64,000 nucleotides of DNA from Gammaproteobacteria bacterium (GCA_020027215.1 JAHRAO010000018.1:10013-74012), one strand, 5' to 3'. Shown: positions 35,609-64,000, counted from the stretch's first letter. Notes: a model not told the origin generated them from the sequence alone. Numbers and translations: made by a program.

Positions 35609-38214
35609 ATTTTTTCCTGCTCGCGAATACGGCAACAATGATGCAAATGACAATAACGGCACGTACTCTCTTTTTGTGGCGCCACCCGCGCAACGCCGCG
35701 GCAGTATTCATCCGCCAAACATTCAATAGCCACACGCCACTCTTTGAGCAGAGATGGGGTGATTTCTTGTGTATGATACTTATACTTAGATTCGGAAGAA
35801 CATACTTGTGCCACCGCTAATGTGTGCAGTTTCCGCTTTTTATCTTGGGTATACACAAGGGCATAAAGAGGCATTTGCGGGGCACTCAGGCGCTTATAGT
35901 CCCATTTAGTATCAATTTTTTTGCCGGTCTTGTAGTCAATCAACCAATAATCCCCTTTATGGGTGCGATCAAGCCTATCAATGCGCAGATTGACTTCGGC
36001 ATCACCGATCTTTCCTTTAATCGTGCTCTCGCATTCTACCACCTTAAATTTTTCTCGTTGAGATCGTTGAGATTCGGCTGTCTCCATCCATTGACTAATG
36101 AGATTCACTAAACGTTCGCGTTCAAGGGATAGCCAGATTTCGCCCCATCTTTGCACAGCTTTATTCTCCTTCTGCCATTTTTCCAAGATGCGATCGCATG
36201 AATCGGCAATCAATGATTTGCGAGAATCACGACCGAATAAATAAGACATATTTCCTGTCTCCGTCGCCTGTTTATATAATTCAGCCAACACTTCATGCAC
36301 CAATTGACCTCGTTCAGCATAATCCGGACCTATTGCCGTCTCGTCTATCTGCCTCGCGCCCAAGCGATGGAGGGCAAAAGCACGGAAAGGACAGGCATAT
36401 TGATCGGTGAAATGTCCGCTACGCATAACGGGAGACTCAACGCGCACATCATCGAGTACAACAGGTTCTAACTGTGGCGCATCGGCTGGGTCCATGACCC
36501 AATGGGGCTGCCAAGTGTGTTCCCATTCTGCATTAGGCTTGTAACCACTCACCAAATTATGGGGGAGCATTTCGCAATCATCAGCCGATTGCGCCATACT
36601 CCATAAAATATGCGGGGCGCTTTGTTGGTAATCAGCAAATAATTGGGTTGCCATATCTGCATTGTGTGCGACATCGGCGTAATTCATTCCCCATTCCTTT
36701 TGTAACGACAAAGGAATCATCGGATTGGGATGAGGAAATACTGGCCAGTTAGTATTCCAACCGGTATACCATACCCCATCACAACGCAACCCTGCTATTT
36801 CCAGCGCACCCAACACATGCACTGTCACAGTGGGCACACTTTGTGCTTGGAACTGACAACGCCATGCCATATCGTTTAATCGTTGCGTTGCTTGTGGACG
36901 ATTCAATTGACCTAACAAAGCGTCATACAAAGCAAATTCATTTAATAAATCTTGCCATCGCTCCCATTGCTGATACTCGGCATGATTAAAACGCCCTCTC
37001 CCCGGATAACCGAGTGCACGTAACTCCTGCCGCCACTGATCGACCCAAGCACTCGGGGCACAAAGAGTAGGTTTATCTTTCTTCATTTCCTTTAATGCCC
37101 GCACCATCTGAGGGCAGGTTTCCCCCAATGTGCTTTCATCGCACCACTGATATAAATCATCTGGCGTCATCTCTTCCTGCCGCCGTTTCAATAATTCCTT
37201 GATAGGACGAGCGGTGTTCCCGGGTGCACTACACTCGGTAATGTAAGGGGATTGCAATAGTGCACACAACAGGGACACCTGTATTGGTCGGTAGGGGAGA
37301 TCTAATAGGTGGAGTGCGGTCGATACCAGCGAGAAATGAGTCAAGCTTCTTGGCGCAGCAATATTGACTACTGCAGAGATATCGGGGTTCAATAAACAAT
37401 CCCCCGCAAAAACATCGGTGAGTACACGTTCCACTATCGGGCGTTGCTGAGTTAAGTTGGGCACCACTACGGCATAGGTCTTTTCGGGGTGCGCCGCCGA
37501 TTTTTCTCGTGCCCAGCGCGCCGCACTATATAGTTCACTTAATGAATCGGTGCATTGGATGAGCTCGCTCTCTGCAGTGAGTTCAGAGACCGCTATATCT
37601 TCATTTTTTTCGCCAATGAATGCGGCTAATTCACGATACAAAGGCGGAAACGGTTGAAAACCTATAGGGGCAATAATGGGCACTTTTTTCTTCTGCCCTG
37701 TGCGATACATTTCTATCACCATGGGCGCTATTTCCAAGCACGTCATGGCTTTTTTTTCATTGGCAAGTATGCGATACGACTGCAAGCACTTATAAAATAA
37801 TTCGCCATTATCCCGCCGTTGGAATTCCTGCATCACCAACTCTTCGTCCCAATCAATCTGCCATAAAAGCAATTGTTTATAAGCCTGACGCATATGATTG
37901 ACCGTATCAAACGAATGTTCATCGCAGTTTTGCGCTATCGCTTGCTGCCACAAAATCTGTTCTCCCTCATCCGAGAGAATGTACCATGGCGAGGCTTTCG
38001 CTGACTCTACACACACCAATGATGTCCATTGGCTACGCAACCATTGTTCCGCAGTAGAGATGAATGGGGTTTGCCACGCATGGCGTTTTTGTTGGCGCTG
38101 ATGGTCGTCATACACCCCCATCATCGCACGACACAAGCGTTGGCGGGCACCCCAAACGACACCTCCCGCCTCTAATACACCTATCAAACGAGTGGAATCA
38201 TAAATAATATTCAT
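35605..38214 (-). CDS. addB: AddB-type helicase-nuclease partner subunit (PD-(D/E)XK nuclease with C-terminal Fe-S cysteine cluster)
   Basis: 869 aa. The C-terminus has a nuclease motif (..GDYWLIDYKTGKK..) followed by cysteines CRYCHLHHCC, typical of the AddB iron-sulfur staple. It lies directly upstream of addA with ATGA coupling. Confidence 0.7.
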   Translation of the reverse strand: MNIIYDSTRLIGVLEAGGVVWGARQRLCRAMMGVYDDHQRQQKRHAWQTPFISTAEQWLRSQWTSLVCVESAKASPWYILSDEGEQILWQQAIAQNCDEHSFDTVNHMRQAYKQLLLWQIDWDEELVMQEFQRRDNGELFYKCLQSYRILANEKKAMTCLEIAPMVIEMYRTGQKKKVPIIAPIGFQPFPPLYRELAAFIGEKNEDIAVSELTAESELIQCTDSLSELYSAARWAREKSAAHPEKTYAVVVPNLTQQRPIVERVLTDVFAGDCLLNPDISAVVNIAAPRSLTHFSLVSTALHLLDLPYRPIQVSLLCALLQSPYITECSAPGNTARPIKELLKRRQEEMTPDDLYQWCDESTLGETCPQMVRALKEMKKDKPTLCAPSAWVDQWRQELRALGYPGRGRFNHAEYQQWERWQDLLNEFALYDALLGQLNRPQATQRLNDMAWRCQFQAQSVPTVTVHVLGALEIAGLRCDGVWYTGWNTNWPVFPHPNPMIPLSLQKEWGMNYADVAHNADMATQLFADYQQSAPHILWSMAQSADDCEMLPHNLVSGYKPNAEWEHTWQPHWVMDPADAPQLEPVVLDDVRVESPVMRSGHFTDQYACPFRAFALHRLGARQIDETAIGPDYAERGQLVHEVLAELYKQATETGNMSYLFGRDSRKSLIADSCDRILEKWQKENKAVQRWGEIWLSLERERLVNLISQWMETAESQRSQREKFKVVECESTIKGKIGDAEVNLRIDRLDRTHKGDYWLIDYKTGKKIDTKWDYKRLSAPQMPLYALVYTQDKKRKLHTLAVAQVCSSESKYKYHTQEITPSLLKEWRVAIECLADEYCRGVARVAPQKESTCRYCHLHHCCRIREQEKI

Positions 38215-43983: not shown

Positions 43984-45282
43984 ATGGCAGCGCTCAACGT
44001 CGCCAATAGAACGCTCTTTAATAGAGATAACTTGGATATTTTGCACGGAATCAACGATAGTTGTATTGATCTGATCTATTTAGACCCCCCATTCAATAAA
44101 AAAAAGACTTTCACCGCCCCGATTGGCAGTAGCGCAGAGGGTGCATCGTTCACCGATATTTTTAGACAAGAAGATATTAAGGACGAATGGGTGGATAGTA
44201 TCCGCTATGAAAATCATCAACTGCACGAATATCTAAAAGGAGTGAAGTTCTTTAGCAATCAATATAATTATTGCTACCTCGTTTATATGGCCGTGCGACT
44301 GATGGAATGCCACAGAATACTGAAAAATACGGGTAGCCTTTATCTCCATTGTGATCCGACTATGTCGCACTATCTGAAAATAGTGCTGGATTGTATTTTT
44401 GGAGAGGATAATTTTAGGAATGAAGTTGTTTGGAGCTACAGCACGGGTGGAGTTAGCAAAAGACATTTTGCAAAAAAACACGACATTATTTTGTTTTATT
44501 CTAAAACTTCTAAAAAGTGTTTTAATCAACCGAGAATACCAAGCAAAGATAGCAAAAGATTTAACATACAGGATAATTATGGCAAAATGTATTATGAAAA
44601 AGCTGGCAATCGTTATTACCTAGATGAAGGTGTTGCCATGACTGATGTATGGGATGTTTATCCTGTTAGAAATGTATCAAAAGAACGTACCGGCTACCCC
44701 ACCCAAAAACCGCTTGCTTTATTAGAGCGGATCGTACAAGCGAGTAGCAACAAAGGGGATGTGGTGCTGGACCCTTTTTGTGGTTGCGCCACAACCTGCA
44801 TAGCGGCAGAAAAACTGGAAAGACAATGGATAGGAATAGATGTATCGGTCACGGCGTATGATTTAGTTAGGAAGCGGATGCGCGATGTTTATCCGGACAC
44901 CGAAATGTTCAAGGATTACGGGATTATTTGTCAAACCACCGTGCCCACCCGCACTGCAATGGGTACAGCAGACAGCAGTGGATTTGTTTACGTGATCAAA
45001 AACGCTGCTTGGAAAGCGCGCTACAAAGTCGGTATCGCCAAAGATGTGGGCAAACGATTAAAGAGCTACCAAACATCAGACCCGCATCGGGGTTATGAAT
45101 TAGTGTATAGCCGACAAAGTATTTATTACCGAGAGATAGAAAAATACATCCACAAGCGGTTTGATAGCGACTATGAATGGGTCTTGTGTCGCGATGAACA
45201 GGCGTTAATTGAAGCCATAGAAAAATATAAAAAAGCCCCGTCGTTGCTCAAAGTCGCCGAACAAGATAATGATTATACATAG
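43984..45282 (+). CDS. Beta-class DNA N6-adenine/N4-cytosine methyltransferase fused to a C-terminal T5orf172 (GIY-YIG-like) domain; no adjacent restriction gene
   Basis: Motif IV IYLDPPF (DPPY-type) comes before motif I VVLDPFCGCATT, which is the beta-class order. The C-terminal ~100 aa (GFVYVIKNAAWKARYKVGIAKDVGKRLKSYQTS...YELVY..) matches the T5orf172/MUG113 domain pattern. The RBS AGGGGG sits 5 nt before the ATG. The upstream 170 bp is AT-rich. Confidence 0.75.
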   Translation: MAALNVANRTLFNRDNLDILHGINDSCIDLIYLDPPFNKKKTFTAPIGSSAEGASFTDIFRQEDIKDEWVDSIRYENHQLHEYLKGVKFFSNQYNYCYLVYMAVRLMECHRILKNTGSLYLHCDPTMSHYLKIVLDCIFGEDNFRNEVVWSYSTGGVSKRHFAKKHDIILFYSKTSKKCFNQPRIPSKDSKRFNIQDNYGKMYYEKAGNRYYLDEGVAMTDVWDVYPVRNVSKERTGYPTQKPLALLERIVQASSNKGDVVLDPFCGCATTCIAAEKLERQWIGIDVSVTAYDLVRKRMRDVYPDTEMFKDYGIICQTTVPTRTAMGTADSSGFVYVIKNAAWKARYKVGIAKDVGKRLKSYQTSDPHRGYELVYSRQSIYYREIEKYIHKRFDSDYEWVLCRDEQALIEAIEKYKKAPSLLKVAEQDNDYT

Positions 45283-50868: not shown

Positions 50869-51364
50869 AAGAATTGATCTTATGAATAATCCAACATATT
50901 TGGAAAACTTTGTAGAACCCGCTGTGCTTAACCGCAAACGTTTAGAAATTAATGAAATTCTAAATATATAATTCCCACATTGAAACACTCGCTTCATTGT
51001 CCTCAAACACATTAAAAAGCCATACCCGCTACAACATTCCCAACGTTGCAGAACGAAAGGGTACGGCATACAATATTGTCACTTAAAAGTATGCTCCCAA
51101 AAATTATTGACGAGGATGTTGTTTGTGTCATTCACGACCCCACTCCCGCAAAAAATTTCGTCCAGTCCATTGTTGCCGCACAATGAGCAATGACACTTTT
51201 GGGTTGCAGTAGTGGTGTTTGGTGGGGGCGATAGTTGCCGAAAGTTATATCACCGATGGTTTATCAAATTGGGGGCAATGGACTGTGTGAACGGAGGCAA
51301 TTGACGACTGGATTTTTAAGCGATTGAAGCATCAACAATAAATTGATTCTCCAAAATATTGTGA

Positions 51365-52015
51365 CTATTGTAACAATCTCGTGACGATCTTGTTATCAGA
51401 ATAACTGTGTCTTTGCGAGGAGGGACGGGCTTGGGTGCCATCAACGATCATTGCGTGATGTGAATTGCATACGCTCTGTGGACATTCTGTATTCATTTCA
51501 ATTTTTTGGTGGGCAGTGTGAATGTCTATGGCACCAGAACACAAACATATATAATCACGCTCAGAATCGACTTTCATATACATCATCGTATTCCGCACGG
51601 TCACTTGTGAAATTTTAGATTCCAGCTCCAATATGGAAGCGGTCTCATCGGGACGGACGACATAGGATAATAGTTTACCTTTTTGGATACTCAATTTAGT
51701 TTTTGTCCCCAGTGACGATACGCGTAAATTACTGACCCCGCGCAGTAAAAATGCATTATGCCCTACAGTAAATCCCACTGCCGAATCGGGTTCTTGTATC
51801 GAAATATTAGCATCATGAGCATTAAATGCGCCGGGGGATGCGCGTTCACCATTGATGAACACTTCTCCCTCCAATATTTTTATCGCATCAGGCAAATCTG
51901 CATTTGATCCCAATGCGAAAAGTGGGGAATGATTGAGCACATAAGGATGGGCTTTTGCGACTACAGACAATCCTGTAGCGGCAAAAGCCCAGTGGAGAAA
52001 ATTTCTTCGATCCAC
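51365..52015 (-). CDS. Tat-signal exported hypothetical protein, paralog A (FecR-domain-like beta-rich region, CxC motif)
   Basis: The N-terminus MDRRNFLHWAFAATGLSVVA carries a twin-arginine RRxFL motif. It is a paralog of the next gene (GEVFINGERA../GKVFVNGKLA.., ..NAFLLRGVSNL../..DAFLLRSNSQL.., DYICLCSG/SYLCTCYG). Confidence 0.4.
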   Translation of the reverse strand: MDRRNFLHWAFAATGLSVVAKAHPYVLNHSPLFALGSNADLPDAIKILEGEVFINGERASPGAFNAHDANISIQEPDSAVGFTVGHNAFLLRGVSNLRVSSLGTKTKLSIQKGKLLSYVVRPDETASILELESKISQVTVRNTMMYMKVDSERDYICLCSGAIDIHTAHQKIEMNTECPQSVCNSHHAMIVDGTQARPSSQRHSYSDNKIVTRLLQ

Positions 52016-52019
52016 TAAT

Positions 52020-52757
52020 TTAATAGTCTATCTGACGTGGCGCCTTATAGATATCTGGTTTGATCCCAAACGGTGGCACACGTCCTAATAGCCCTTCAAT
52101 AAGAGCAAGTTCCTGGTCCGTATGATTCTTGAATGGAGCAGATTCTATTTTTCTGCCAGTCGGAGCATCATTGACCAAGTAGCGCGGTTGGTCATGGTAT
52201 TCCGATTCAATGATTTCACGACTATTCGGGTCAGATTGGGAAGCAACTTCCACCATACCATAACATGTGCACAAGTAACTCGCATCGGGATCATTTTCTA
52301 AATAAAAACCAGTACCACGCACCGTCAAACCCCAACCGGCAGTTTGCATATTTAAGGGCTGTTCATTTTCCCCGCGTTTACCGAAAACAGACAACACTTT
52401 TCCCGAAACCACATCGATCTTTTCGACTTCTCCCGATTTTTGTTTCCCTTGGAAAGAGAGCTGGCTATTACTGCGGAGTAAGAATGCATCCTTCCCAACA
52501 GCAAAAACCGCTCCGCTATTTGAACCAGAAGCAACGCTATCATTTGGTCCAATTACCGTACGCTTATTTGCTAATTTGCCATTAACAAAAACTTTACCTT
52601 TAATGTCTTGAAAGGATCTGCCTTTACGCAAAGAAGGTTTGCCATCCGCACCCAATACAATGCGTGGAACAGCCACCGATAAAAGACCCAGAGTCAAAAA
52701 TTTGACTAATACATCCCGTCGGGTCGCAATAAATAAATCTATATCTCTAATTTTCAT
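52020..52757 (-). CDS. Tat-signal-like exported hypothetical protein, paralog B (FecR-domain-like)
   Basis: TRRDVLVKFLTLGLL.. signal-like N-terminus. The conserved blocks shared with paralog A include WGLTVRGTGFYLE, which resembles the FecR-domain signature. Function unknown. Confidence 0.4.
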   Translation of the reverse strand: MKIRDIDLFIATRRDVLVKFLTLGLLSVAVPRIVLGADGKPSLRKGRSFQDIKGKVFVNGKLANKRTVIGPNDSVASGSNSGAVFAVGKDAFLLRSNSQLSFQGKQKSGEVEKIDVVSGKVLSVFGKRGENEQPLNMQTAGWGLTVRGTGFYLENDPDASYLCTCYGMVEVASQSDPNSREIIESEYHDQPRYLVNDAPTGRKIESAPFKNHTDQELALIEGLLGRVPPFGIKPDIYKAPRQIDY

Positions 52758-52945
52758 ATCCCATCACCATACATATTCTAATTACTATAACCTATATAGT
52801 TAACATAAATTAATTCTAAGATATAACAAAGTAAATAATTCACACTTCTATAATGTATTATTACCATAACAATAGTTATTTCCTTATATTTATTATAACG
52901 CAATTGAAGATACGAGTATACAAATGGCACAATTGATGATCGCAG

Positions 52946-53608
52946 ATGATGTCGGCTAGTCTCCTCTATGTCCTCACTTATTACAAGCGCACCCGCAATA
53001 TGTCCCGTATTTGTCAAATCATGCGGAGCACACCAGAGACAGATACTTTACTGATCTGTAACGGCGATATAAATCGCATTCAATCGTATACATACGATAT
53101 CCCTGTTATTGTGACCGATAACCGCTGGAAAAATTTTCAGCGGCATATCGTCATCCAAAATTTCTTGCGGCACAAAACATACGATCATGTCCTCCTTTTA
53201 GATGATGATGTCATCCCCTCCTTTGAATTACCACATTATTTTTTATCGGGCAGCGCCCCGCATACCATAGTAGGCGGATGGGGGTATCGCATTGATGGTG
53301 ATGATTATACGCGCAGGACCAAAATAGAGGATGGTAGTGAATGTCATTATATGGGGGCGGGAATCACACTTTATCCGAGTGATTTTTACCGCCACCTCAA
53401 TTTAATGAACATTGATGCCAATATGATGGTGATGGATGATATATGGCTAAGTTATATGGCAAAATGCCTCAACTATCGCCTGCTGGGAATGTCATGCCAG
53501 CATTGGCAATTCAAAGGCAATGATGATCGGCATGCCACTTACTTGCGGCTCGGCGAAAATAAAAAGAGAAAGTATTGGCGTGCGCTATTTGTAAATGAAT
53601 CTCACTGA
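52946..53608 (+). CDS. Hypothetical protein with a DXD motif (possible GT-A-like glycosyltransferase)
   Basis: 220 aa containing YDHVLLLDDDVIPS (hydrophobic strand plus DDD) and a later MMVMDDIWLSY. Preceded by a ~190-bp very AT-rich divergent promoter region. The start could be an internal Met. The family is not firmly recognised. Confidence 0.3.
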   Translation: MMSASLLYVLTYYKRTRNMSRICQIMRSTPETDTLLICNGDINRIQSYTYDIPVIVTDNRWKNFQRHIVIQNFLRHKTYDHVLLLDDDVIPSFELPHYFLSGSAPHTIVGGWGYRIDGDDYTRRTKIEDGSECHYMGAGITLYPSDFYRHLNLMNIDANMMVMDDIWLSYMAKCLNYRLLGMSCQHWQFKGNDDRHATYLRLGENKKRKYWRALFVNESH

Positions 53609-55956
53609 GGCGCACCCTGCATAATCCAATTCACCATAAGGTCGTAATTGGCACGATCGCCAACGCGAAGGTTAAATCCACTCCGTATGCCGCCACCATG
53701 ATTTTCGGTTGACGGTTTAATCAAAATTTTACTCCAGCGCGGATATTGAAAATTGACCCATTCTACCGTTGCTTGATAAATCGTCCCTTTATTATCAGGC
53801 TGTTGTTCTGAAAACCATACCGGAATATTAGCGTAAGCAATCTGATTTCCAGGTGTTTTCTGTTGGTGACAGGTCACACATGCATTTGAATCGTCAGCAC
53901 TCGGGTTATTAAATTTAGGATCTAAAATGGATCGGATATGCGATGTAAAGTTCACCGTTGACGGCAAACTATTGTCCACTGTAATACGGTGGGACGCTAT
54001 GGAATCTTGATCGGCATTACCATTACCTACCCGCAATTCTATAGTATATTCACCTGGAATACTAGTTTCTAAAGAAGCGAGCACGCTATCTGCATTACGC
54101 AGAGCAACATCACCTGCAGTCGCATTCGTCGGCATACTCCGCACAGTCCATTGGTATTGTTTGGCAAATTGACTGCCAATACCATTAAGGGTCACTGGTG
54201 ATGCGGCATGACGATCCGGACCTGGATCGGAAATGGGACGACCTGGAAGTAGTATATTCCCCGTTGCACCGCGGCGAGTAAAGTTTGGAATAGCCGCCGC
54301 CAAAAGTTCTAATTTGCGCGGGTCGCCAAATAAACGGTTGTAGTTTAATCCAGATAACGGCATAATACCTAAATCAAAGATATAGCTTTGGAGCTGTTCT
54401 CCATAAGAGATAAAATCTTGGTAATTTGATAAATCCACCACCGGATTGAATCGGCGTCCTTCCGCTTCACCAGGCCAACTACTTCCTCGTCCGGCATGAC
54501 AAACATGGCAATTAGGACCAACCACTTCACGGAAAATTTCCTCCGCTATCAATGGGGGGTCGTTGTCTAATGGGTCATGCCTCCATCCGCTCGGGATAAA
54601 ATCTTCCCTATAGTATGCGGAGGGAAAATTAACACCTCCATACCATCCCTCCACGAGTTCGCGTAGCAAATCGCCTTGCCAATATCCATCATTGGCGCGT
54701 GGTTGACCATAGTTGACCATTCGACCATTATGTTCACGCATACATATCTGTTTATCATTTGTCCCGGGGTAGGTACAATACAGCATGATATTCATCCTTT
54801 TAATCATTGCCTCTTGCGCCGTCTTAGTATAAGCGGATATATTTTCGGAAAAAATCAAATCAACAACTTCTAAAGGCTGTAATAACGCTTTTGTATCACC
54901 GTTATTACGGTAAATAAAACCACTGATGGCATTCGTGGCAGTGGAACGCACCAGTGGTTGCGTCAGTCCGTTATGACAAACAATACATGGGCCGGGCATG
55001 GATTTAGCACCGCGACCATCTAAATCCACGACAAGTAGCCTATTGCCCGCCGGATCAAAAGTATAGAACTGGGCAAAACGCGTTCCATCAGGGGCTTTAC
55101 TAAATTCAATTGCATTCGTCCCCACTAAATAACGCCGATCATCCATAATTGCCGCTTCTAAACTCAATGCATTGCCATATTCCGCAGGAGATATCGCACC
55201 TTGGGTTTCGGTGCGCACTAAGTAATTGCCGACAAAGACCGACAAAGATTCGTTTCCGCTGCTGGTACCAGGATTTTGACGCATAAACATATTACGACCA
55301 TAACCCAAATCTCTTGCATCGCGAAAAATAATATGTGCATCGTGTCCTTCATCAAATCCATTGACTTTTTTCCAATCCTCCAAAGTGGTGCGCGTATTGC
55401 TCGGGTCAATAGTTTGATAATACGCCCGAGCGTGGAGTTCGTAATCTATCAATGAACGTTGTAACAACAAGCGATTATTTTCTGCCGTCGCGCGCATTCT
55501 ACCGTGTTCATCAAAAAAATAAAAACTATAGTTATTGGTCGGTGACGTTGCCAAAGATGCGCTCAATCCGCCGGGGCGAGAAACCATAATGGGATAACAA
55601 TTGTCGTTAGATCCCACCACAAAACTGCCACTCGGTAACTGGCAATTACTGCGTTGCATTACGGTTGGGCTACTTCCTGTCAATTCAACGCGTACTGACA
55701 TATTGTTTGCCGCTGCCATGCGCAAGAGTAAAGTATACCGCCCCGCTGGCAAACCGCGTTGCTGATTTACTAGCTGTAAATACTCATTTGGGCCACTCCG
55801 ATCAACCGACGGTAACCCTTGCAGCACTTGTAATTGATCGGTGACTTGGTTATTGTCACCCCCACACCCCGCAACGAACAATAACATCAAAAAGATATGC
55901 CGTTGAATATAAGGGGTCCGGCGAAATAATAAGTGATACAACATTTTTTTTACCAT
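53602..55956 (-). CDS. Large lipoprotein with three c-type heme-binding CXXCH motifs (putative triheme cytochrome c)
   Basis: Signal peptide with lipobox LLFVAGCGG. CIVCH, CHVCH and CVTCH were each verified on the DNA. Only 10 Cys occur in 784 aa, and 6 of them are in CXXCH motifs. Candidate distal Met ligands are IMP/RMNIM. The start lies 5 nt after the upstream OMP stop. Confidence 0.55.
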   Translation of the reverse strand: MVKKMLYHLLFRRTPYIQRHIFLMLLFVAGCGGDNNQVTDQLQVLQGLPSVDRSGPNEYLQLVNQQRGLPAGRYTLLLRMAAANNMSVRVELTGSSPTVMQRSNCQLPSGSFVVGSNDNCYPIMVSRPGGLSASLATSPTNNYSFYFFDEHGRMRATAENNRLLLQRSLIDYELHARAYYQTIDPSNTRTTLEDWKKVNGFDEGHDAHIIFRDARDLGYGRNMFMRQNPGTSSGNESLSVFVGNYLVRTETQGAISPAEYGNALSLEAAIMDDRRYLVGTNAIEFSKAPDGTRFAQFYTFDPAGNRLLVVDLDGRGAKSMPGPCIVCHNGLTQPLVRSTATNAISGFIYRNNGDTKALLQPLEVVDLIFSENISAYTKTAQEAMIKRMNIMLYCTYPGTNDKQICMREHNGRMVNYGQPRANDGYWQGDLLRELVEGWYGGVNFPSAYYREDFIPSGWRHDPLDNDPPLIAEEIFREVVGPNCHVCHAGRGSSWPGEAEGRRFNPVVDLSNYQDFISYGEQLQSYIFDLGIMPLSGLNYNRLFGDPRKLELLAAAIPNFTRRGATGNILLPGRPISDPGPDRHAASPVTLNGIGSQFAKQYQWTVRSMPTNATAGDVALRNADSVLASLETSIPGEYTIELRVGNGNADQDSIASHRITVDNSLPSTVNFTSHIRSILDPKFNNPSADDSNACVTCHQQKTPGNQIAYANIPVWFSEQQPDNKGTIYQATVEWVNFQYPRWSKILIKPSTENHGGGIRSGFNLRVGDRANYDLMVNWIMQGAPQ

Positions 55957-55961
55957 AAAAC

Positions 55962-56843
55962 TTAAAAAATACTGGTGAAAGTCATGCGATAAAGCAAGCG
56001 TTCATAGCGATTACCTCCATCCGCCCTCACCTGCACCGTACGAGCAGATAAATCTAAAGAGCGTTTGTTATTATGGAACGCCATAACACCTCCCAAGGAA
56101 AACACATGCGTATCACCTTTCAAACGGTAAGCAAATTGGTTTTCCTGTGATCCACCAAACACTTCATCTGGTTCTATTGCGCGGGCATTATTAATCACAT
56201 TTAATGGCGCAATACCACTTGAAGTCGTATCGCCCGTGAGAAACCTGTAATTAGTATAGAGCAAGAAATTATTACTCAATTGAAAATCAAAATTAGTAAA
56301 TAGCCCAGTGTTAATCGTATCAAATGTCTCACCTTTTGCTTCACGTTGGCGGTAGTCAATCCCCGCAAAAAAAGATGTGCGCAGTGATAATGGCGAGAGC
56401 ATTTGCATGCCGTAAATATAGGTCGTTGAATCGCGCCTATCGGAAAACACATCATCCTCTACGACGCGTACAAAAAGTTGATAACGGTTGGAAAAGGGAC
56501 CGAGGGAACGTGCAAAATGTAATGCCAATTTTGTCTCGTATTCATATTCGCTTAATTCGTTAAAATGCCTGAAATCTGTGTAAGCCACTTTTCCATGGAG
56601 GGTCACAAACACCTTGTGGCTAATATTTTTTGCCAAATTGACTTGCATGTTGGCCGTGTTCAATATATCCTCACGGCGAATATCTGATTTTTCTGCCGTA
56701 TTGACATTATTATCCAACACAGCGGATAGGCCAAAAAAACCTGAAAAGCCATCCAAGAAATCAGCGTTTGCCGTCACGGAATAGCAACACAATACAAAGC
56801 CGATCCATATCGGGCGACAGGCATATGCCATCACCTTAATCAT
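55962..56843 (-). CDS. Predicted outer-membrane beta-barrel protein (small OMP, family unassigned)
   Basis: Signal peptide ..IWIGFVLCCYSVTANA followed by alternating amphipathic beta-strand-like segments and a C-terminal ...RMTFTSIF ending in Phe, as is typical of OMPs. The start is chosen at the Met forming an ATGA overlap with the adhesin stop. The ORF track begins at 56861. Confidence 0.45.
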   Translation of the reverse strand: MIKVMAYACRPIWIGFVLCCYSVTANADFLDGFSGFFGLSAVLDNNVNTAEKSDIRREDILNTANMQVNLAKNISHKVFVTLHGKVAYTDFRHFNELSEYEYETKLALHFARSLGPFSNRYQLFVRVVEDDVFSDRRDSTTYIYGMQMLSPLSLRTSFFAGIDYRQREAKGETFDTINTGLFTNFDFQLSNNFLLYTNYRFLTGDTTSSGIAPLNVINNARAIEPDEVFGGSQENQFAYRLKGDTHVFSLGGVMAFHNNKRSLDLSARTVQVRADGGNRYERLLYRMTFTSIF

Positions 56844-59800
56844 TGGTTTATGAATCTGCATAATTTTATCTTTCTTGCAATTATAAGATATATTTTAACC
56901 CCAACCAGCAATAAGAGCAAGTATAATATTATCTGCCCGATTGCCCCGCCGCGCGCGAGAATCGGGGTGGGAGGAATTACTTTCTGTGGGAGTGCCAATT
57001 TTATAGTCGTTTCCAGCACCCCATTCGCCATGCGATCATCATCGTAGATCCCTCCATCACGCAACGATATCCTCACACATCGGCTTGAACCGTGTAAACC
57101 TAACACGTATGCGCTACTGCCCGGGGGGGGACATCCTCTTGTCGAATCGCCAATAATACTCGCAAACTGGGTGCCGCTTGCCGCATTCGCGACCACCGAC
57201 TGCCACATACCAGCACGACGATTATATCTCCGCCACTGCGCATCAGAAGTCAAGCCAATAGGCAATTCAAATATTATACCAATATCCTGTCCAGGCATAG
57301 CTCGATTGACAACAAAAGAATATATAGCACTGATATCAACAAATTTACTGTCCGTCACGATAGCGGTACTGGTCACCATATCCCCATTTTCTCCACCAAA
57401 TTGTGCAATTTGGTGGTAAGTAACGCCAACACCTCCTGAAATAGTGCTACCAGCTAAAGCAATTGCACTCGGTTGTAACACCAATCCCGGCATAGTTTCA
57501 ATTAAGTAAGGGGGGGAACTGTTCGGATAAACATGCATCACATGCATAGGGAGGGATGAGTGTTGCGTCACAGTACTCGCTCGCCACACGCTTGCAATAT
57601 CGGTGCGCATGGGGGGAGCGCCATTATCGGTGATAGTGACGGCCAAACGATAGAGCCTGTGGGGAATCAGATTGCGCGCATCAAAGCTAAACATGCGTAC
57701 CGAAGACATTGGGGCAGCAAAAGAAGCATCACTCCCTCGCCAACTGATATTCTGTTGGTTATCTGCATTGGGATCTCTAATGTTGAGGAGCACCGACACT
57801 GGCGTTGTACTGATCGGAATAACATTATTGGATAACAACACTCCGTCTTGCCGCAAATCAAACCAAGCCGTTGACGGAAAATTGTCTTCAATAATAGAAA
57901 TCCTATGGTCGCGATTACCGCGCAAGGTTGCCCCTATAGCGGACTGCAAACGCACAACTATTGTCTCTTCTCCTTCTTGTACATCATCATTACATATCGA
58001 AAAATTAATCGCGGCGCTGGTTTGGCCTTGAGTAATCATAGTATTACGGAAAGAAGGGAGCACAACATCCACTCCAGAGGCACAACTATCGCCGACCATT
58101 GCCGTGCCTGACACAGTATAAGTCACAGTGACAGGATAGAACGGGGTCACGCCATTCAGTATGAATTGGATTGTGCCCGTACTGCCCTCTCCCAATACTT
58201 GATTATTTCCCACTTCCACAATGGGAATAATATAAATCGTCTGGTTAATAGTACTTTCAACGGGTTGGCTTATACCTTCAAATGTCGCCCGCCAAGTAAT
58301 AATATGCCGTCCAGTAGTTAAACTCAGGCTCACCGCGGGCGCAAAGACCGTTAAAGATTGACTAGTATTAAATAATTGTGCGCTCGGCCGTTCTAAAGCA
58401 CTCAGTGGAGTTAGTCGTCCAACCGCTGCAATGATTTGTTGCATTTGAGATAGCTGCCATACCACAGCATATCCCGGCAATTGATCCATAAAATATTCAT
58501 TTGCATTAGGTAATAAATCGCCATCTAAATCTTCCAAAGCATCCGATATACCGTCATTATCACTGTCTGCGTTGAGTGGGTTTAATCCATAAATAATTTC
58601 CCATTCATTGGGCAATCCATCGTTATCGCTATCATGTGGTAAGGTTATTACCACTTGGATCGTTGATGATGAGCGCGCACCATCTTCGTCAGAAATGGTG
58701 TAATGCATTACTTCTGGTTGTTGGGGTAAAGTCACTTGACGACAGAGCGGAATATAATGGATACTATTGGTCTCTGTATCAATAGTGATTGTGGCTGAAG
58801 CCTGAATCGGAGTCACCTGTACAATGTCTAAGAATTGATTCTCACTATCAAAATCATTACGTTGTGGCATAAATCGGTTGATTACAGGCGGAGTTTCACA
58901 CGAACTAATTACTGAAAAATAATCAGGATACGCCACTGGCGTATCGTTCACTGGGTTCACTTCAATATCATAAAATTGATTGGAGATGGTATCGTTTGCG
59001 CCATCCCGTACCAGATAAATAAACTTATCACTGGTCGTCTCGCTACCATCGTGCCGATAACTCACCATGCCTGCGTCTAACATGGCTTGCGAAAATTGAG
59101 TGACGCGCTCGTCAGGGGTATCCGCCTTGATCAGTCGCCCATAAGATGGTTCTTGGACAATATTGTAAAGGATCTGGGAAACAGGGTGATCATTATCCGC
59201 CACCGATAAACTCATTGAAGTGAGCACTGCCTCACTTCCCTCATCCAAGACCAATGTTCCGGTAGAAACAATGTGGGGTACATCATTGACATCGCGAATA
59301 TTAATTTGCAAAGATAGAGGCAGAGAAACAGTTGCACCATCATAAACTGTGAGATTAAATGATGTCGTGCGAATTGGCGGATTGGGGTTTTCACTGCCAT
59401 CATGCACATAACGCAACCGTTGATCAATCCCCATCATATCGCGCATCAAATCATCATTGACATCTTCTTGCGAAAAAATATCTCCCGTCCCCAAAAAACC
59501 GTGCTCTAACATCAGCACTCCATATTGCGGTGTGCTGATGAGCGTATAAATAATATCAAAATCTAATGGTCCGTCGCGATCGATTAAACGCAGGACATTA
59601 TCATCAATCGCAACGACCCCGCCTTCGTCCACCCATATGGTTGCAGTGACAATAGTGGGGGTGGTATTATTAGAATCAATGATTGCAACAAGTGTTTGAG
59701 TGACCACCATAGCGGGCGCATCTGTGTCGTGTACTGCATAGAGGATTTCATCCCGCCCGTTAGAAGCATCCCCGCGCGGTATATGGTGATTGTAAACAAT

Positions 59801-62800
59801 ATTTCCATCATTGAGCGCCTTTTGGGTAAAGGTTGATCCAGAAGCCATTATTGACGAGGTAAATATGTTCAGTAAATCACCTTCTTCGGGTAATTCTGCC
59901 ACTTGGTACACTATTTCTTCGGGCGGGTTATCTACATCTATCCACGATAAGTTCGCGGTTGTAACAGTGACGCTCGTATTGATGACAGGAAGTACTAATG
60001 AAAGCAGACCCTGTCGTTCTTCAGGAATATCATTAATGGGTGTGATTTCTATATTCACCGTATATTGCGGCGACTCTAATCCTTCGTTATCGCTTACCAC
60101 AAAACGAAAGTTATCGGTACCCGAGGTATGGTTTTGCGGCGGGTAATTAGGCTGAGGGTGATAATACAGTACGTACTCCCCATTATTATTGAGGAAGTAC
60201 TGCCCACTGGTGTCAATGGACACACCGTTATTGTCCGCTAAGGTACCGTTAGTTGGGCTACTTGTCAAGCGCACGCGCAAAGAAGTTCCTATATCTTCTA
60301 CATCGGCGCCGCGCAAAACAATTTGCACCGAACTATCTTCCACCACGACCACGTTCGCACTAGACGGAAGCAAGTTCCCCACCCCCGCCACAGGCGTACT
60401 ATCATTAATGGCAACACTCGGAGTATCATTAATCGGTTGAATCATGAGTGTCACTGTGGTCGGTAGTGAACTAGAGACGAAGTCATTCGCCACAAAAGTC
60501 GCAGTATCTTGACCGTTTTCATGAAGATTGGTAGTATAGGTTAGAGTGGCCACTCCGGCGACAAAGGAACCGGTAGTCGGCACTATAGTACCCTTTAAAG
60601 GTGCTGATAATATTTCATAAGACAAGGCATCGCCATCAACATCCATTGCGCGAAGAGTAATCGTGCTGGATGTATCTTCATCCAGCATTACTTGAACAGG
60701 AGTAGCGGTTGGGGTGTCATTGACGGGGATAATGGTTACGGATAAGGATGCCGGAAGCGAATCTGTGCTGCCATCATTGATTGTATAAGTAATGGTCGTC
60801 AATCCAAAAAAATTCGGCGGTGGTCGATAATGGACAATAAAGGTCGCGCTTGTGATACTGTCGCCTTGTAACATTCCACTCGTCGCAGAAAACATGGCAC
60901 CCGGCGGCGATGAACGCAATAGCCACGACAAAGGATCGCCATCACTATCGCTCCCGCGCACCGTGAGGGGGATTAATGTATCTTCAAGTCCCATAAAACT
61001 ATCGGAAATAGCGAGTGGTCTGTCTGGTTGATTATAGACAATAAAATTGATTGTGGGGCGGAGTAAAGTGCCGTATTGAAAGACAAAATTGTCCAGTCCG
61101 CGAAAATGAGCCCTTGGGCGATAGTTCAGCGTGGCAATACCATCAATAAAATTGATTGCACTCCCTACACCGAGCATATTTCCCGCCATCATTAAATTAC
61201 CAGAACTGAGTTGTATGATAGTGCCCGTAGTCGTACCGCTCAATGGCAATCTGATATCTACAGTAAAATCGACATCGGTATCTTCGTTTAATAATACGGT
61301 CACCGTCGGTGTAGTCGGTAAGTCGGCAATCGGCGTGACTGCTATACTAATCGTATGAGGAGATGATTGTAATAAGCTATTCACATTATAGGCAATAAAA
61401 TTGATTTGGTCTGACCCATTGTAATTAGGATGCGGCCTATAAAGACTACCAGTGAGTGAACCGTTTTGCGGCACGGAAGTAAATATAAAAGCTATATTAC
61501 CAGCATCAACATTGGTCGTAACCGATTCTAAAGACAATTGTAAGTCAATTACCCCATCTTCATTGACAGCGGTAATCAAATCGGCACTCGATGGCGGGTC
61601 TGCAGCATCATGCACCATAATGGTCACCGTAACTGCGGTAGAGAATGTTCCGCCAGAATCGCTTACCCGATATGCTAGCGTTTCCATGCCGACAAAATGA
61701 GCAGCAGGAGTATACAATAAAGATAATTGCCGCAACGCCACATGCGTAGCAGAAAAAGTAGCGGTCGTTCCAGCGGCAAGTGTCCCAGGTGTTCCCATTA
61801 AGCTTAAAGTGCCACTGGATGGCACACTGATCAATTCTACATAACCATCACTCAATCCCTCTCTATCCTGTGCATTGATGACCACTAACGCTGTCGTATC
61901 TTCTAATACATGGATAATCGTTGCATTTTGGGTCGAAGTCCCCACACCAGTTATTGGCGCATCAGGAACTGGATGGACGGTAAAGAATACTTGCGCCTCG
62001 GCAGAAGTAAAAGTGCCGTCATGCACCGCGTAAGTCATAAAATCTAAGCCAAAAAAGTGGGGGGATGGGGTATATTGAATGTTTGGCAAACTAGGAATGA
62101 TAGAACCATGGCGGGGTGGCGTAATAATCCGGTATGTGAGTGCATCACCATCTACATCACTCCCCCCTTGTAAAATGAAATTGGCAACCGTATCTTCCTG
62201 TAAGGGAACCTGAATTTGTGGAGCAGTCGGAAGATCATCCACCGGATTAATGAAAACGGTGACTGAACTTTCTCCCAGACTAAATGTTTGGGTGGCGACT
62301 TCAAATTGTATATTCCACGAATCGCTCCCATTGTAATTAGGAAGAGGCGTGTAGGTCAGGACATTGCTGGTTGTACAACCTATACCGACCAAAGAACCCA
62401 TACTGGTGATACTGCCTGAAGTGGGCAATAATGTGACACAAACCCGTGCAGTTGCGGCATTGAAAGTGATAGTGAGCGAACTATCCTCATTGAGCGTAAA
62501 AGTAGAGGTGGCTATGCTGAAGTTCGCCGTACTCACATCAGTATGAAAAAAGGTGGGGGTCGATAACGGAGCAACATCTATCTGTAACACACGGAACGTG
62601 ATAGTTGCTGTTGCGGATAAAACATTTTTATCATCCATTACTCGGAACAGCGCGGTGGTGTCGCCGACAAAATCAGGAGGCGCAAAATAATGTAAGGGAG
62701 AAGAAGTGCCCGTATACATGTTTGTCCTAAAATTGAAACTCGGGCGCATAGTGAGAGTACTCCCGATACTAAATGGCATTCCTTGATACAAAAATACACC

Positions 62801-64000
62801 TGTGGAGGGTAATGCTGTTATTTGTAACACAGCCGAGTTGCTGTCCACATCTGCACTGCTCAGCGTAAACTGGGCAGTCGTCCCTTGCGCTACTGCAATA
62901 GTGGAATCATTGGCAATGGGAGGAGCATTATTGATGGTAATATGCACGGTTGCAGGTGCAGACATTGCTCCATCTGCATCATGGACGCGAAAGGTAAAAT
63001 GCGCCGTGGTTTGTGTCCCTGTCGGAGTGTATAACACTTGATTATTCTGCACTGGAGACAAGATGCCCGCTGTTGGGGGAGTAACAATCGTAAAAAACAG
63101 ATCGGTCATGGTGTGATCGGCATCGGAGGCAGCAAGAGTAATCACTGTAGGTACTGCCGCTACCAAAACTGCAGAAACGGGCGTAGCAACGGGTGGGTCA
63201 TTGACGGGGAGGATAAGCACCGTATTGATGACAGTAGTATCTCCGCCGTCAGGATCACGGATATTGACGCGCAATGTATCGCTACCAAAAAATTGAGCAT
63301 TCGGGGTGTATTGCACGCCTATAGTCGCGATACCACTTGTATTGACAGTAAAGGCGGTGGAAGTCAACATCGCCATACCATTTGTGGGTGCCGTAACGAT
63401 TTGGGGGATCAATAAAGTGCTATCTATGTCCCGTAACCGATAATAAAATGACAGATTACTATCCTCTTCACCGCGCACAGGAAAAGTAGTCAATATTTGC
63501 TGTGTGCCACTAACCACAAAAGATTCAATAAACATCGGCGGGTCATTGACTGATTGGACAGTCACCATCAAGGTAATATTCGATGAGCACCCTGCATCAA
63601 TTCCGGTGCCAATTCCACTATCGCATACTCGTATCATCGCGCGAGCGCTACCCGTGAAATGATCTGGTGGACGGTAGCGTAAAGGCAATTGTGTACTGAT
63701 TGTTCCAGATGAGAGAGTGAGCACATGAATAAATAATGCCCCCGTTGTGCTGTCAATATCGTCAACGTGCAAGTCGCTCAGAGTCAACTCCAATACACTA
63801 TCTTCAAGAATGGTACGCGTTATTGTCATTTCCGTCGAAACGGGAAGATCATTGACGGCAACAACTTGAATCATCACGGTCGCCACCGGGGTCAAAAATC
63901 CATCAATACCATTAGACACGCGGAAGGTAAAACTATCGTTACCGTGGTAATTTGCATCGGGGCTATAGTGCAATGTGCGCCGCCCATTGGTTAAAAGGCC
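56840..64000 (-). CDS. Giant cadherin-like/VCBS-repeat adhesin (partial; N-terminus beyond window end), with thrombospondin-type-3-like Ca-binding repeats and a C-terminal hydrophobic helix plus basic tail
   Basis: Over 2377 aa of ~100-aa beta repeats, each ending in a VNDxP/INDTP/VNDLP motif (e.g. VAVNDLPV, VNDPPMF, PVNDPPVA, VNDTPTA, INDTPSV), with DSDNDG repeats near the C-terminal region. The tail reads ...PPTPILARGGAIGQIILYLLLLLVGVKIYLIIARKIKLCRFINQ. The reading frame runs to the window edge. Confidence 0.7.
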   Translation of the reverse strand, partial: GLLTNGRRTLHYSPDANYHGNDSFTFRVSNGIDGFLTPVATVMIQVVAVNDLPVSTEMTITRTILEDSVLELTLSDLHVDDIDSTTGALFIHVLTLSSGTISTQLPLRYRPPDHFTGSARAMIRVCDSGIGTGIDAGCSSNITLMVTVQSVNDPPMFIESFVVSGTQQILTTFPVRGEEDSNLSFYYRLRDIDSTLLIPQIVTAPTNGMAMLTSTAFTVNTSGIATIGVQYTPNAQFFGSDTLRVNIRDPDGGDTTVINTVLILPVNDPPVATPVSAVLVAAVPTVITLAASDADHTMTDLFFTIVTPPTAGILSPVQNNQVLYTPTGTQTTAHFTFRVHDADGAMSAPATVHITINNAPPIANDSTIAVAQGTTAQFTLSSADVDSNSAVLQITALPSTGVFLYQGMPFSIGSTLTMRPSFNFRTNMYTGTSSPLHYFAPPDFVGDTTALFRVMDDKNVLSATATITFRVLQIDVAPLSTPTFFHTDVSTANFSIATSTFTLNEDSSLTITFNAATARVCVTLLPTSGSITSMGSLVGIGCTTSNVLTYTPLPNYNGSDSWNIQFEVATQTFSLGESSVTVFINPVDDLPTAPQIQVPLQEDTVANFILQGGSDVDGDALTYRIITPPRHGSIIPSLPNIQYTPSPHFFGLDFMTYAVHDGTFTSAEAQVFFTVHPVPDAPITGVGTSTQNATIIHVLEDTTALVVINAQDREGLSDGYVELISVPSSGTLSLMGTPGTLAAGTTATFSATHVALRQLSLLYTPAAHFVGMETLAYRVSDSGGTFSTAVTVTIMVHDAADPPSSADLITAVNEDGVIDLQLSLESVTTNVDAGNIAFIFTSVPQNGSLTGSLYRPHPNYNGSDQINFIAYNVNSLLQSSPHTISIAVTPIADLPTTPTVTVLLNEDTDVDFTVDIRLPLSGTTTGTIIQLSSGNLMMAGNMLGVGSAINFIDGIATLNYRPRAHFRGLDNFVFQYGTLLRPTINFIVYNQPDRPLAISDSFMGLEDTLIPLTVRGSDSDGDPLSWLLRSSPPGAMFSATSGMLQGDSITSATFIVHYRPPPNFFGLTTITYTINDGSTDSLPASLSVTIIPVNDTPTATPVQVMLDEDTSSTITLRAMDVDGDALSYEILSAPLKGTIVPTTGSFVAGVATLTYTTNLHENGQDTATFVANDFVSSSLPTTVTLMIQPINDTPSVAINDSTPVAGVGNLLPSSANVVVVEDSSVQIVLRGADVEDIGTSLRVRLTSSPTNGTLADNNGVSIDTSGQYFLNNNGEYVLYYHPQPNYPPQNHTSGTDNFRFVVSDNEGLESPQYTVNIEITPINDIPEERQGLLSLVLPVINTSVTVTTANLSWIDVDNPPEEIVYQVAELPEEGDLLNIFTSSIMASGSTFTQKALNDGNIVYNHHIPRGDASNGRDEILYAVHDTDAPAMVVTQTLVAIIDSNNTTPTIVTATIWVDEGGVVAIDDNVLRLIDRDGPLDFDIIYTLISTPQYGVLMLEHGFLGTGDIFSQEDVNDDLMRDMMGIDQRLRYVHDGSENPNPPIRTTSFNLTVYDGATVSLPLSLQINIRDVNDVPHIVSTGTLVLDEGSEAVLTSMSLSVADNDHPVSQILYNIVQEPSYGRLIKADTPDERVTQFSQAMLDAGMVSYRHDGSETTSDKFIYLVRDGANDTISNQFYDIEVNPVNDTPVAYPDYFSVISSCETPPVINRFMPQRNDFDSENQFLDIVQVTPIQASATITIDTETNSIHYIPLCRQVTLPQQPEVMHYTISDEDGARSSSTIQVVITLPHDSDNDGLPNEWEIIYGLNPLNADSDNDGISDALEDLDGDLLPNANEYFMDQLPGYAVVWQLSQMQQIIAAVGRLTPLSALERPSAQLFNTSQSLTVFAPAVSLSLTTGRHIITWRATFEGISQPVESTINQTIYIIPIVEVGNNQVLGEGSTGTIQFILNGVTPFYPVTVTYTVSGTAMVGDSCASGVDVVLPSFRNTMITQGQTSAAINFSICNDDVQEGEETIVVRLQSAIGATLRGNRDHRISIIEDNFPSTAWFDLRQDGVLLSNNVIPISTTPVSVLLNIRDPNADNQQNISWRGSDASFAAPMSSVRMFSFDARNLIPHRLYRLAVTITDNGAPPMRTDIASVWRASTVTQHSSLPMHVMHVYPNSSPPYLIETMPGLVLQPSAIALAGSTISGGVGVTYHQIAQFGGENGDMVTSTAIVTDSKFVDISAIYSFVVNRAMPGQDIGIIFELPIGLTSDAQWRRYNRRAGMWQSVVANAASGTQFASIIGDSTRGCPPPGSSAYVLGLHGSSRCVRISLRDGGIYDDDRMANGVLETTIKLALPQKVIPPTPILARGGAIGQIILYLLLLLVGVKIYLIIARKIKLCRFINQ

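Follow-up and report, generated by a model that had tools for sequence, protein, structure and literature searches.

Does a large bacterial lipoprotein with three scattered CXXCH motifs carry heme, and if so, with which partners would it work? The question is raised by a gene in a 64,000-nucleotide (nt) stretch of DNA from a Gammaproteobacteria bacterium (GCA_020027215.1 JAHRAO010000018.1:10013-74012; hereafter the window, from the first letter of which all positions are counted), where an initial annotation had described an open reading frame (ORF) for a 784-amino-acid (aa) lipoprotein with exactly three heme-binding motifs. We conclude that the product of the ORF is a genuine c-type cytochrome, with three predicted covalent heme sites, and we favour, with moderate confidence, the reading that this triheme lipoprotein acts as a redox protein of the cell envelope, within a surface module of several components that would be new. 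As a c-type cytochrome lipoprotein it is of a known kind; its heme-binding core domain and the four-gene module to which it belongs are undescribed. Coordinates of all features are collected in Table 1.

The ORF proved to be intact: a public protein collection contains the identical protein as P0001 (identity and coverage both 100%), and the alignments with homologues span 93-100% of the 784 aa, so that there is no sign of a frameshift. Its N-terminus reads MVKKMLYHLLFRRTPYIQRHIFLMLLFVAG-C31-GGDNN, a signal peptide that closes in a lipobox; a basic n-region is followed by ..MLLFVAGC, which fits the lipobox consensus [LVI][ASTVI][GAS]C. In what follows, counts of the form x/70 refer to a family alignment (A1) of 70 homologues. 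A lipobox-like motif is present in 59/70 of these family members and in 74/108 more distant representatives. The lipobox is followed by a disordered tether (aa 32-55), with a predicted local distance difference test score (pLDDT) <50 for aa 30-54 in a model made with AlphaFold2 (AF2). We counted 11 cysteines in the protein (positions 31, 105, 120, 324, 327, 394, 405, 483, 486, 693 and 696); six of them lie in CXXCH motifs, as stated in the initial annotation, although the total given there was ten, and the lipobox residue Cys31 is one of five, rather than four, that lie outside the motifs. Cys394 and Cys405 probably form a disulfide, since they occur together in about half of the homologues (36/70 and 34/70), and Cys105 and Cys120 are unconserved in the same alignment.

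All three motifs, CIVCH, CHVCH and CVTCH, were found inside the approximate ranges originally given for them. From the composition of the protein 0.003 CXXCH motifs would be expected, and among 200,000 shuffles of its residues 539 contained one motif and none contained two or more; together with the conservation of the motifs in the 70 homologues, this upholds the earlier argument that they exceed chance. These homologues are only 31-41% identical to the window protein, the nearest relatives being those at 41%. It can be seen from the alignment that C324, C327, H328, C483, C486, H487, C696 and H697 are invariant (70/70), and so are M532 and H753 outside the motifs. The single motif residue that varies is the first cysteine of site 3, C693, which is Cys in 57/70 and Ala, Asn or Met in 13/70, always followed by xxCH. 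Their conservation across 70 homologues of such low identity shows the three motifs to be functional. The signal peptide and lipobox would provide the periplasmic export that heme attachment requires, so that CXXCH motifs with a conserved His and export to the periplasmic side, the hallmarks of a c-type cytochrome, are found together.

An alternative that would remove heme from the picture altogether is that the CXXCH motifs are structural disulfides, or Zn or Fe sites, in a non-redox surface lipoprotein. The window protein has no significant cytochrome match in Pfam, as this explanation would have it; however, the His of each motif is invariant, homologues do match the cytochrome families PF13442 and PF00034, and Met532 and His753 stand at expected axial-ligand positions. 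The variants of site 3 also speak against it: loss of the first Cys with retention of the CH pair would be incompatible with a disulfide or Cys2 metal site, and the (A/N/M)xxCH forms fit single-thioether heme attachment instead. We therefore regard the disulfide or metal-site explanation, which the initial annotation had allowed for, as scarcely credible, and three conserved heme c sites with invariant CH pairs as the better description. The (A/N/M)xxCH forms are also an observation in their own right, as they imply single-thioether heme attachment in a bacterial protein family.

The AF2 model, built with the family alignment, has a pLDDT of 85.5 and a predicted template modelling score (pTM) of 0.86, and a pTM of 0.86 at such a size speaks for several domains packed into one compact body and against a string of separate beads. 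Five folded parts were recognised: a beta-sandwich comes first and is followed by an alpha/beta core, which holds heme 1, a class-I-type cytochrome c domain for heme 2, a PKD domain and, for heme 3, a further cytochrome c domain. As the initial annotation had suggested, the long regions between the motifs are separate folded domains, the PKD domain among them. The PKD assignment is solid: the family profile matched PDB entries 6nz0 (E=4e-14) and 2yrl (E=1.4e-4), and a Foldseek search with the AF2 model retrieved 2yrl, 6ihb and 7kpn with probability 1.0. PF22352 is precomputed on many homologues, and the window protein alone falls under the Pfam reporting threshold. The beta-sandwich is missing in a shorter subfamily that covers ~79% of the query (matches covering 77-83%). 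When the full AF2 model was compared with the PDB by Foldseek, only the PKD domain and generic Ig folds were retrieved.

The heme 2 domain is helical, and PF13442 was matched by 11/15 homologues at E-values of 2e-4 or weaker. Some homologues carry precomputed PF13442 or PF00034 assignments; the window protein itself has no class I cytochrome match in Pfam. The profile of this domain aligned weakly with cytochrome c6, from the CXXCH motif through an "MP" methionine. Met532 is located 45 residues past His487, within the ~40-60 residues after the CXXCH at which the distal Met of a class I domain is looked for, and because Met532 is invariant, and because of the PF13442 matches and the cytochrome c6 alignment, heme 2 is probably His/Met ligated. 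Comparison of the heme 2 and heme 3 domains by hhalign gave a match around CXXCH only (probability 39%). Cytochrome_C7, the MtrC domain, SoxA/TsdA and NrfH were also considered as the family of the protein and rejected, the Pfam and NCBIfam matches being sub-threshold and confined to the CXXCH motifs themselves.

For the heme 3 domain, which is likewise helical, a named relative could be found. Its profile (A8) aligned over the entire domain with residues 174-290, domain 2, of FoxE, the di-heme protein of Rhodobacter ferrooxidans SW2 (PDB 5MAB; E=0.0014), and the full-length family profile reached FoxE domain 2 at E=0.12. Both proteins are exported, and the two domains share an N-terminal "F..dI.pil...C..CH", the motif "dPe.S.l" and, as a C-terminal helix, "WI..GA". 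In its general arrangement, with an "MP" methionine, the heme 2 domain also resembles FoxE; the heme 2 profile does not retrieve FoxE. FoxE homologues are reported to have methionine axial ligands; Met208 near the C-terminus ligates heme I, and one such methionine reaches from the C-terminal region to the other heme (PMC10654088). In the alignment His753 stands opposite the Met of the FoxE "RMPPG" motif, and because of this position it is very probably an axial ligand, either of heme 3 or of the heme against which it packs. FoxE itself is soluble, comprises ~290 aa in two domains and uses methionines as axial ligands, whereas the triheme protein has a histidine at the equivalent position, a PKD domain between the cytochrome domains, and a 300-aa core and a beta-sandwich ahead of them. 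FoxE is the nearest named relative, through one 110-aa domain whose similarity is borderline.

This relationship raises the possibility that the protein is a FoxE-like metal redox enzyme of the envelope, which would take part in detoxification or uptake by oxidising Fe(II) or by reducing Fe(III) or some other metal. In addition to the heme 3 domain, which is closest to FoxE domain 2, a conserved neighbour would fit such a role: the 245-aa protein with a twin-arginine translocation (Tat) signal that is encoded beyond the 3' end of the triheme gene has a weak match to the FecR domain (E=1.5e-3, below the Pfam cutoff). However, the FoxE similarity concerns a single ~110-aa domain of a widespread cytochrome c type, a histidine takes the place of the FoxE methionine, and the FecR-type domain is not specific to iron. 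There are no foxY or foxZ partners either, no protein of the pyrroloquinoline quinone (PQQ) type and no FoxZ-like neighbour having been identified near the triheme gene, and the hosts are not known iron oxidisers. We consider an enzyme of this kind decidedly unlikely.

The suggestion that part of the protein might represent a new family fits the alpha/beta core, for which no Pfam or NCBIfam family and no PDB entry was matched by sequence profile or by fold. A Foldseek search of the PDB with the model of aa 166-575 gave a best E of 0.07 and probabilities ≤0.23, and when profiles of the whole family, of the core, of the heme 2 domain and of the outer-membrane barrel described below were run against the PDB, the PKD domain and the borderline FoxE match were returned, with nothing for the core or the barrel. 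The core is nevertheless far from rare in our searches. An exhaustive search with the core profile over 1.84 billion cluster representatives (clusters at 50% identity) found 1,848 core-bearing representatives at E≤1e-3, of which 1,292 were at E≤1e-10 and 309 at E≤1e-30. These proteins range from ~600 to 3,900 aa and carry the core at differing positions; in eight of them it is accompanied by K319L-PKD, PKD, Big_9/cadherin, fn3, beta-helix, P-domain or CarboxypepD_reg modules, a set typical of secreted or surface proteins, and in one (P0237) Big_9/cadherin repeats are fused to the core. Because 135/140 representatives have a CXXCH inside the core match, with a second usually 110-160 aa later, the evolutionary unit is the core with heme 1 together with the cytochrome c domain that follows. 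Among distant core members, P0155 (795 aa) has eight CXXCH motifs, and P0182 (3,907 aa) has six, four of them within the span of three matched core stretches.

An alignment of 105 core domains (104 from representative proteins plus that of the window, 29-49% identity) was used to ask which residues surround heme 1. Residues conserved in ≥90% include Y179, Y180, D184, D216, R221 (105/105), M223 (99/105), E284, R306, D313, K318, C324, C327, H328, N389, Y439 and W458. H328 is the only invariant residue among the Met and His of these 105 domains; Met223 is conserved in 65/70 of the family and 99/105 (94%) of the core domains. Since there is no invariant Met or His partner, and since invariant Tyr, Arg, Asp and Glu residues lie around it, we infer that heme 1 alone lacks an obligatory sixth ligand and that, of the three hemes, it is the prime candidate to face a substrate or act in catalysis.

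Such a heme would also suit a self-contained peroxidase or oxidase, in which a five-coordinate heme 1 reduces H2O2 or O2, or oxidises a small substrate, while hemes 2 and 3 feed it with electrons, much as the peroxidatic heme of bacterial di-heme peroxidases is supplied by the electron-transfer heme, and the neighbouring genes are incidental or simply share the location. The coordination pattern agrees with this, Met532 and His753 being invariant while no Met or His is available as an invariant sixth ligand at heme 1, as do the invariant Arg221, Asp216, Glu284 and Asp313 and several Tyr around the core, the retention of the unit of core and His/Met cytochrome across architectures, the occurrence of the gene alone in some genomes and the largely aerobic hosts. 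However, no CCP/MauG, DyP or other peroxidase model is among the Pfam matches listed (five for the window protein, at E≤10), and Foldseek, run against the PDB with the full model and with the core model, found no CCP/MauG or RoxA fold, so that the protein is not a CCP/MauG peroxidase, one meaning of the "peroxidase-like" in the initial annotation. Likeness to CCP/MauG (PF03150) is conceptual only, in that one exported polypeptide would combine a possible open-coordination heme with a His/Met heme for electron transfer; CCP/MauG has an all-alpha class-I fold, unlike the alpha/beta domain of heme 1, and the triheme protein adds a third heme, the PKD domain and a lipid anchor. Met223, moreover, could ligate heme 1, and the tight operon and gene fusions described below argue that the neighbours matter. 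A self-contained peroxidase or oxidase therefore appears unlikely.

The other family named at the outset, "PSCyt/PSD-like", fared no better: no such model (PSCyt1-3, PSD1-5; DUF158x/159x) was listed by Pfam at E≤10 for the window protein, or at E≤1 for 15 and 18 homologue fragments. The PSCyt1-3/PSD proteins of planctomycetes and hydrazine synthase alpha are likewise large exported multi-domain proteins with isolated CXXCH domains, and the C-terminal heme domain of hydrazine synthase alpha (5c2v) shares "dF..dI.PIl..C..CH ... WI..GA", although the match is not significant (E=0.22). The core is unrelated to these proteins, and the likeness of the C-terminal domain to the hydrazine-synthase type is distant and at the level of motifs. 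A weak and non-significant match to PDB 7b21 (E=0.5) is all that connects the triheme protein with the Cbp2D/Cbp2E-type extracellular cytochrome-containing proteins of Cellvibrio japonicus. Proteins of this type are multi-domain secreted or surface proteins of aerobic Gammaproteobacteria with single c-type heme domains beside binding modules; their domain sets differ, and there are no carbohydrate-binding or lytic polysaccharide monooxygenase genes in the triheme neighbourhood.

The proposed role of the triheme protein is drawn from the genes around its own. One genome per species was scanned for relatives, which gave 176 loci, and the best 80 of the 176 plus three other contigs make up the 83 loci that we compared. 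In tblastn searches over these 83, a giant repeat protein was found in 61, a 299-aa putative outer-membrane beta-barrel in 58 and the 245-aa Tat-signal protein in 48. In the window, the giant gene overlaps the barrel gene by 22 nt and the barrel gene ends 5 nt before the triheme start, an arrangement in the order giant, barrel, triheme that is consistent with co-transcription. A scan of 51000-57500 for promoters and terminators gave nothing above shuffled expectation. The conserved operon, with a barrel and a giant predicted to carry heme, is the most informative feature of the locus and was not noticed in the initial annotation.

Only part of the giant protein, >2,377 aa, is encoded in the window, because its gene begins further upstream. 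A choice-of-anchor U domain is recognised in it at 32.7 bits (NF041766, cutoff 32), and its C-terminus consists of a Gly-rich segment, a hydrophobic transmembrane (TM) helix and a basic tail. Giant homologues share this Gly-rich/TM/Arg-rich tail, which resembles GlyGly-CTERM signals of the rhombosortase type, no model having matched the tail here. A rhomboid (rhombosortase-like) gene was considered as a conserved partner and rejected, being present near the L001 cluster and absent from the window and the other 82 loci. All of the 45 complete giant homologues have exactly one CXXCH, at aa 42-158, just past the signal peptide; because of this single N-terminal motif, the giant "adhesin" is predicted to be itself a monoheme cytochrome in these homologues. 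Of the complete giants tested, two (L003 and L047) match the NCBIfam choice-of-anchor V model above cutoff, and three others have weak PF13442 matches.

The putative barrel has a signal peptide and ends in an aromatic residue (Phe). Its matches to outer-membrane protein (OMP) families are weak: EpsL TIGR03014 at E=3e-4, and OMP_b-brl, SlipAM and DUF2490 in a few members. An adjacent barrel of the SlipAM (DUF560) family would point to the triheme protein as a Slam-dependent surface lipoprotein; for SlipAM, the window barrel has no match, and 3/34 barrel homologues do (best E=0.039), beside equally weak matches to other OMP families. In eight loci (L018, L050, L060, L063, L073, L076, L078 and L079), from Oleispira, Bermanella, Burkholderiales and one other metagenome-assembled genome, the giant reading frame continues at its C-terminus straight into the barrel, a fusion which argues that the barrel anchors the giant in the outer membrane. 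The layout of the fused ORFs, which end at about 9540-9890 in their loci, is like that of an autotransporter; the window has two separate genes instead.

The Tat-signal protein is not alone, as the window also encodes a diverged 216-aa paralogue in tandem with it, likewise with a twin-arginine signal; in other loci the tblastn matches of the paralogue fall on the same gene as those of the 245-aa protein. C163, C165, H188 and H212 of the 245-aa protein are invariant in 38 sequences, an alignment that includes both window paralogues. Given its Tat signal and this set of two Cys and two His, it is probably a cofactor-bearing periplasmic protein, either a metal or a redox partner.

Close linkage to the giant could also mean that the giant is a substrate, the triheme protein being a MauG-like maturation enzyme whose hemes oxidatively cross-link or otherwise modify the giant protein encoded two genes upstream. 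The frequency of the linkage and the fusion of Big_9/cadherin repeats to the core in P0237 are in line with this, and the PKD domain and the beta-sandwich could bind protein. However, our searches revealed no link to MauG in sequence or fold, the gene also occurs without the giant, and the giant's own heme fits a redox partnership better than a substrate role. We regard a maturation enzyme as very improbable. For this enzyme, as for the peroxidase or oxidase and the FoxE-like enzyme, there is no positive support at the level of a protein family.

Returning to the envelope redox module, we propose that the triheme lipoprotein would serve as its redox component, together with the giant Ig/cadherin-repeat protein, the barrel and the Tat-exported 2Cys/2His protein. 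In such a module the small outer-membrane barrel would anchor the giant surface protein, the Tat-exported protein would be a periplasmic metal or redox partner, and within the triheme protein hemes 2 and 3 would form an electron relay with heme 1 at the substrate-facing or catalytic end. Most likely, it would shuttle electrons between carriers in the periplasm and a reaction located at the outer membrane or outside it.

Several points weigh against this proposal. The part of redox partner is assigned from gene context. A barrel of ~290 aa lacks the size to enclose a cytochrome in the manner of MtrB, which leaves no evident path for electrons through the outer membrane, and the giant has its heme and its anchor at opposite ends, so that an extended repeat array would keep the heme far from the lipoprotein. 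Nor does the triheme gene need adjacent partners in order to work, since ~6-10 of the 83 loci (L016 and L020, for example) have it by itself, flanked by bioH/bioC and rpoH-ftsXE. Sorting to the outer or the inner membrane is uncertain from the residue at lipobox position +2, which is Gly in the window protein and Asp in 14/59 homologues. Met223 or Lys318 could be the sixth ligand of heme 1, which would make it a plain relay heme. Lastly, the hosts are mainly aerobic Gamma- and Betaproteobacteria that are not known metal respirers.

A further system for comparison is MtrC/OmcA with MtrAB, where likewise a lipoprotein c-type cytochrome is encoded beside an outer-membrane barrel and has a probable envelope or surface location. 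However, MtrC and OmcA have ten hemes, in MtrC domains II/IV, as against three here, and the PF22113 match is faint (E=0.085, over 16 residues on a CXXCH). Porins of the MtrB/PioB type are far larger than the ~290-aa barrel (26 strands are cited for MtrB), no periplasmic decaheme protein is encoded nearby, and the hosts are mostly aerobes. Membership of the MtrC/OmcA family was rejected on the grounds of the three hemes, the sub-threshold PF22113 match, the 299-aa barrel and the lack of an adjacent decaheme gene. The Uet cluster of Tenderiales, with c7-type triheme proteins and a 28-strand barrel, was set aside as unrelated, and so was BapP of Pseudoalteromonas, an adhesin of the type I secretion system without heme. 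A bolder proposal would be that the core is a new heme c fold, the catalytic head of widespread surface redox enzymes, and that the four components form a new system of ordinary aerobic Gamma- and Betaproteobacteria for extracellular redox chemistry, at the outer membrane or outside it, unrelated to Mtr, Pio and Cyc2; we put this forward tentatively and hold it to be doubtful. In the literature, neither the family nor the operon was found to be described, whether as a triheme lipoprotein with a barrel, as choice-of-anchor or GlyGly-CTERM cytochromes, or as heme-carrying cadherin-like adhesins.

Table 1. Features of the triheme lipoprotein locus, in window coordinates.
Feature	Position	Strand	Basis or remarks
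Triheme lipoprotein gene, 784 aa, ATG start	53602..55956 (stop codon included)	-	ORF listing
Signal peptide and lipobox, aa 1-31 (..LFVAG-Cys31)	55864..55956	-	sequence; Cys31 in 69/70 homologues
N-terminal beta-sandwich, aa ~60-165	55462..55779	-	DSSP strands aa 72-165
Alpha/beta core, aa 166-465, heme site 1	54562..55461	-	family-level search, conserved residues
Heme site 1, CIVCH, aa 324-328	54973..54987	-	invariant in 70/70 homologues and 105/105 core domains
Class-I-type cytochrome c domain, aa 466-575, heme site 2 and Met532 (54361-54363)	54232..54561	-	PF13442 in homologues
Heme site 2, CHVCH, aa 483-487	54496..54510	-	C483/C486/H487 in 70/70 homologues
K319L-like PKD domain, aa ~578-662	53971..54225	-	profile against PDB, Foldseek, PF22352 on homologues
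C-terminal cytochrome c domain, aa 663-784, heme site 3 and His753 (53698-53700)	53605..53970	-	H753 in 70/70; FoxE profile match
Heme site 3, CVTCH, aa 693-697	53866..53880	-	C696/H697 in 70/70; C693 in 57/70
Putative outer-membrane beta-barrel, 299 aa	55962..56861	-	ORF; adjoins triheme gene in related loci
Giant Big_9/cadherin repeat protein, >2,377 aa, 5' end beyond window	56840..64000	-	Pfam Big_9 6.9e-76, Cadherin_3/4/5
Tat-signal protein, 245 aa (RRDVLVK)	52020..52757	-	48/83 loci; alignments A2, A6
Diverged Tat-protein paralogue, 216 aa (DRRNFL, CLC)	51365..52015	-	in A6; tblastn onto same gene
Convergent ORF, 220 aa	52946..53608	+	overlaps triheme 3' end by 7 nt

Between the Tat-signal gene and the triheme gene lies a convergent 220-aa ORF, in a stretch of lower G+C content (about 0.41). 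It has no Pfam or NCBIfam match and no counterpart in any of the 83 loci, and may be either spurious or inserted in this lineage only. Elsewhere the content of the window is that of an ordinary chromosome, with tRNA synthetases, mutL, a TonB-dependent receptor, sugar-nucleotide enzymes and an AddAB-like nuclease. The last of these is a pair of adjoining genes at 32315-38214 (- strand), for a UvrD-type helicase with a PD-(D/E)XK nuclease domain (1,115 aa) and a PD-(D/E)XK protein (869 aa). Directly upstream of mutL, at 43984-45282 (+ strand), an N6/N4 DNA methylase is fused to a domain of the T5orf172/MUG113 type.

How widespread the triheme family is was estimated with a word-indexed homologue search in which 8,000 candidates were scored, so that the counts are lower bounds. 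More than 651 clusters at 90% identity belong to the family, full-length homologues included, and nearly all of these relatives are unnamed or called "mono/diheme cytochrome c family protein". Hosts among the Gammaproteobacteria are Alcanivoracaceae, Oleispira, Bermanella, Litoribacillus, Litoribrevibacter, HTCC5015, Moraxellaceae, Permianibacter, Thiotrichaceae and the Olavius Gamma 3 symbiont, and those among the Betaproteobacteria are Burkholderiales and Nitrosomonadales; a homologue also comes from a tubeworm symbiont.

Surface c-type cytochromes are known mostly from metal-respiring and iron-oxidising specialists. The triheme family is found in common marine and soil bacteria, including hydrocarbon degraders (Alcanivoracaceae and Oleispira) and sulfur-oxidising symbionts. 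At minimum, it offers a clean target for the definition of a domain family and for studies of structure and biochemistry. Should electrons indeed be moved at the cell surface by the module, more organisms would have to be thought capable of extracellular redox chemistry, and a new heme-binding fold would be added.

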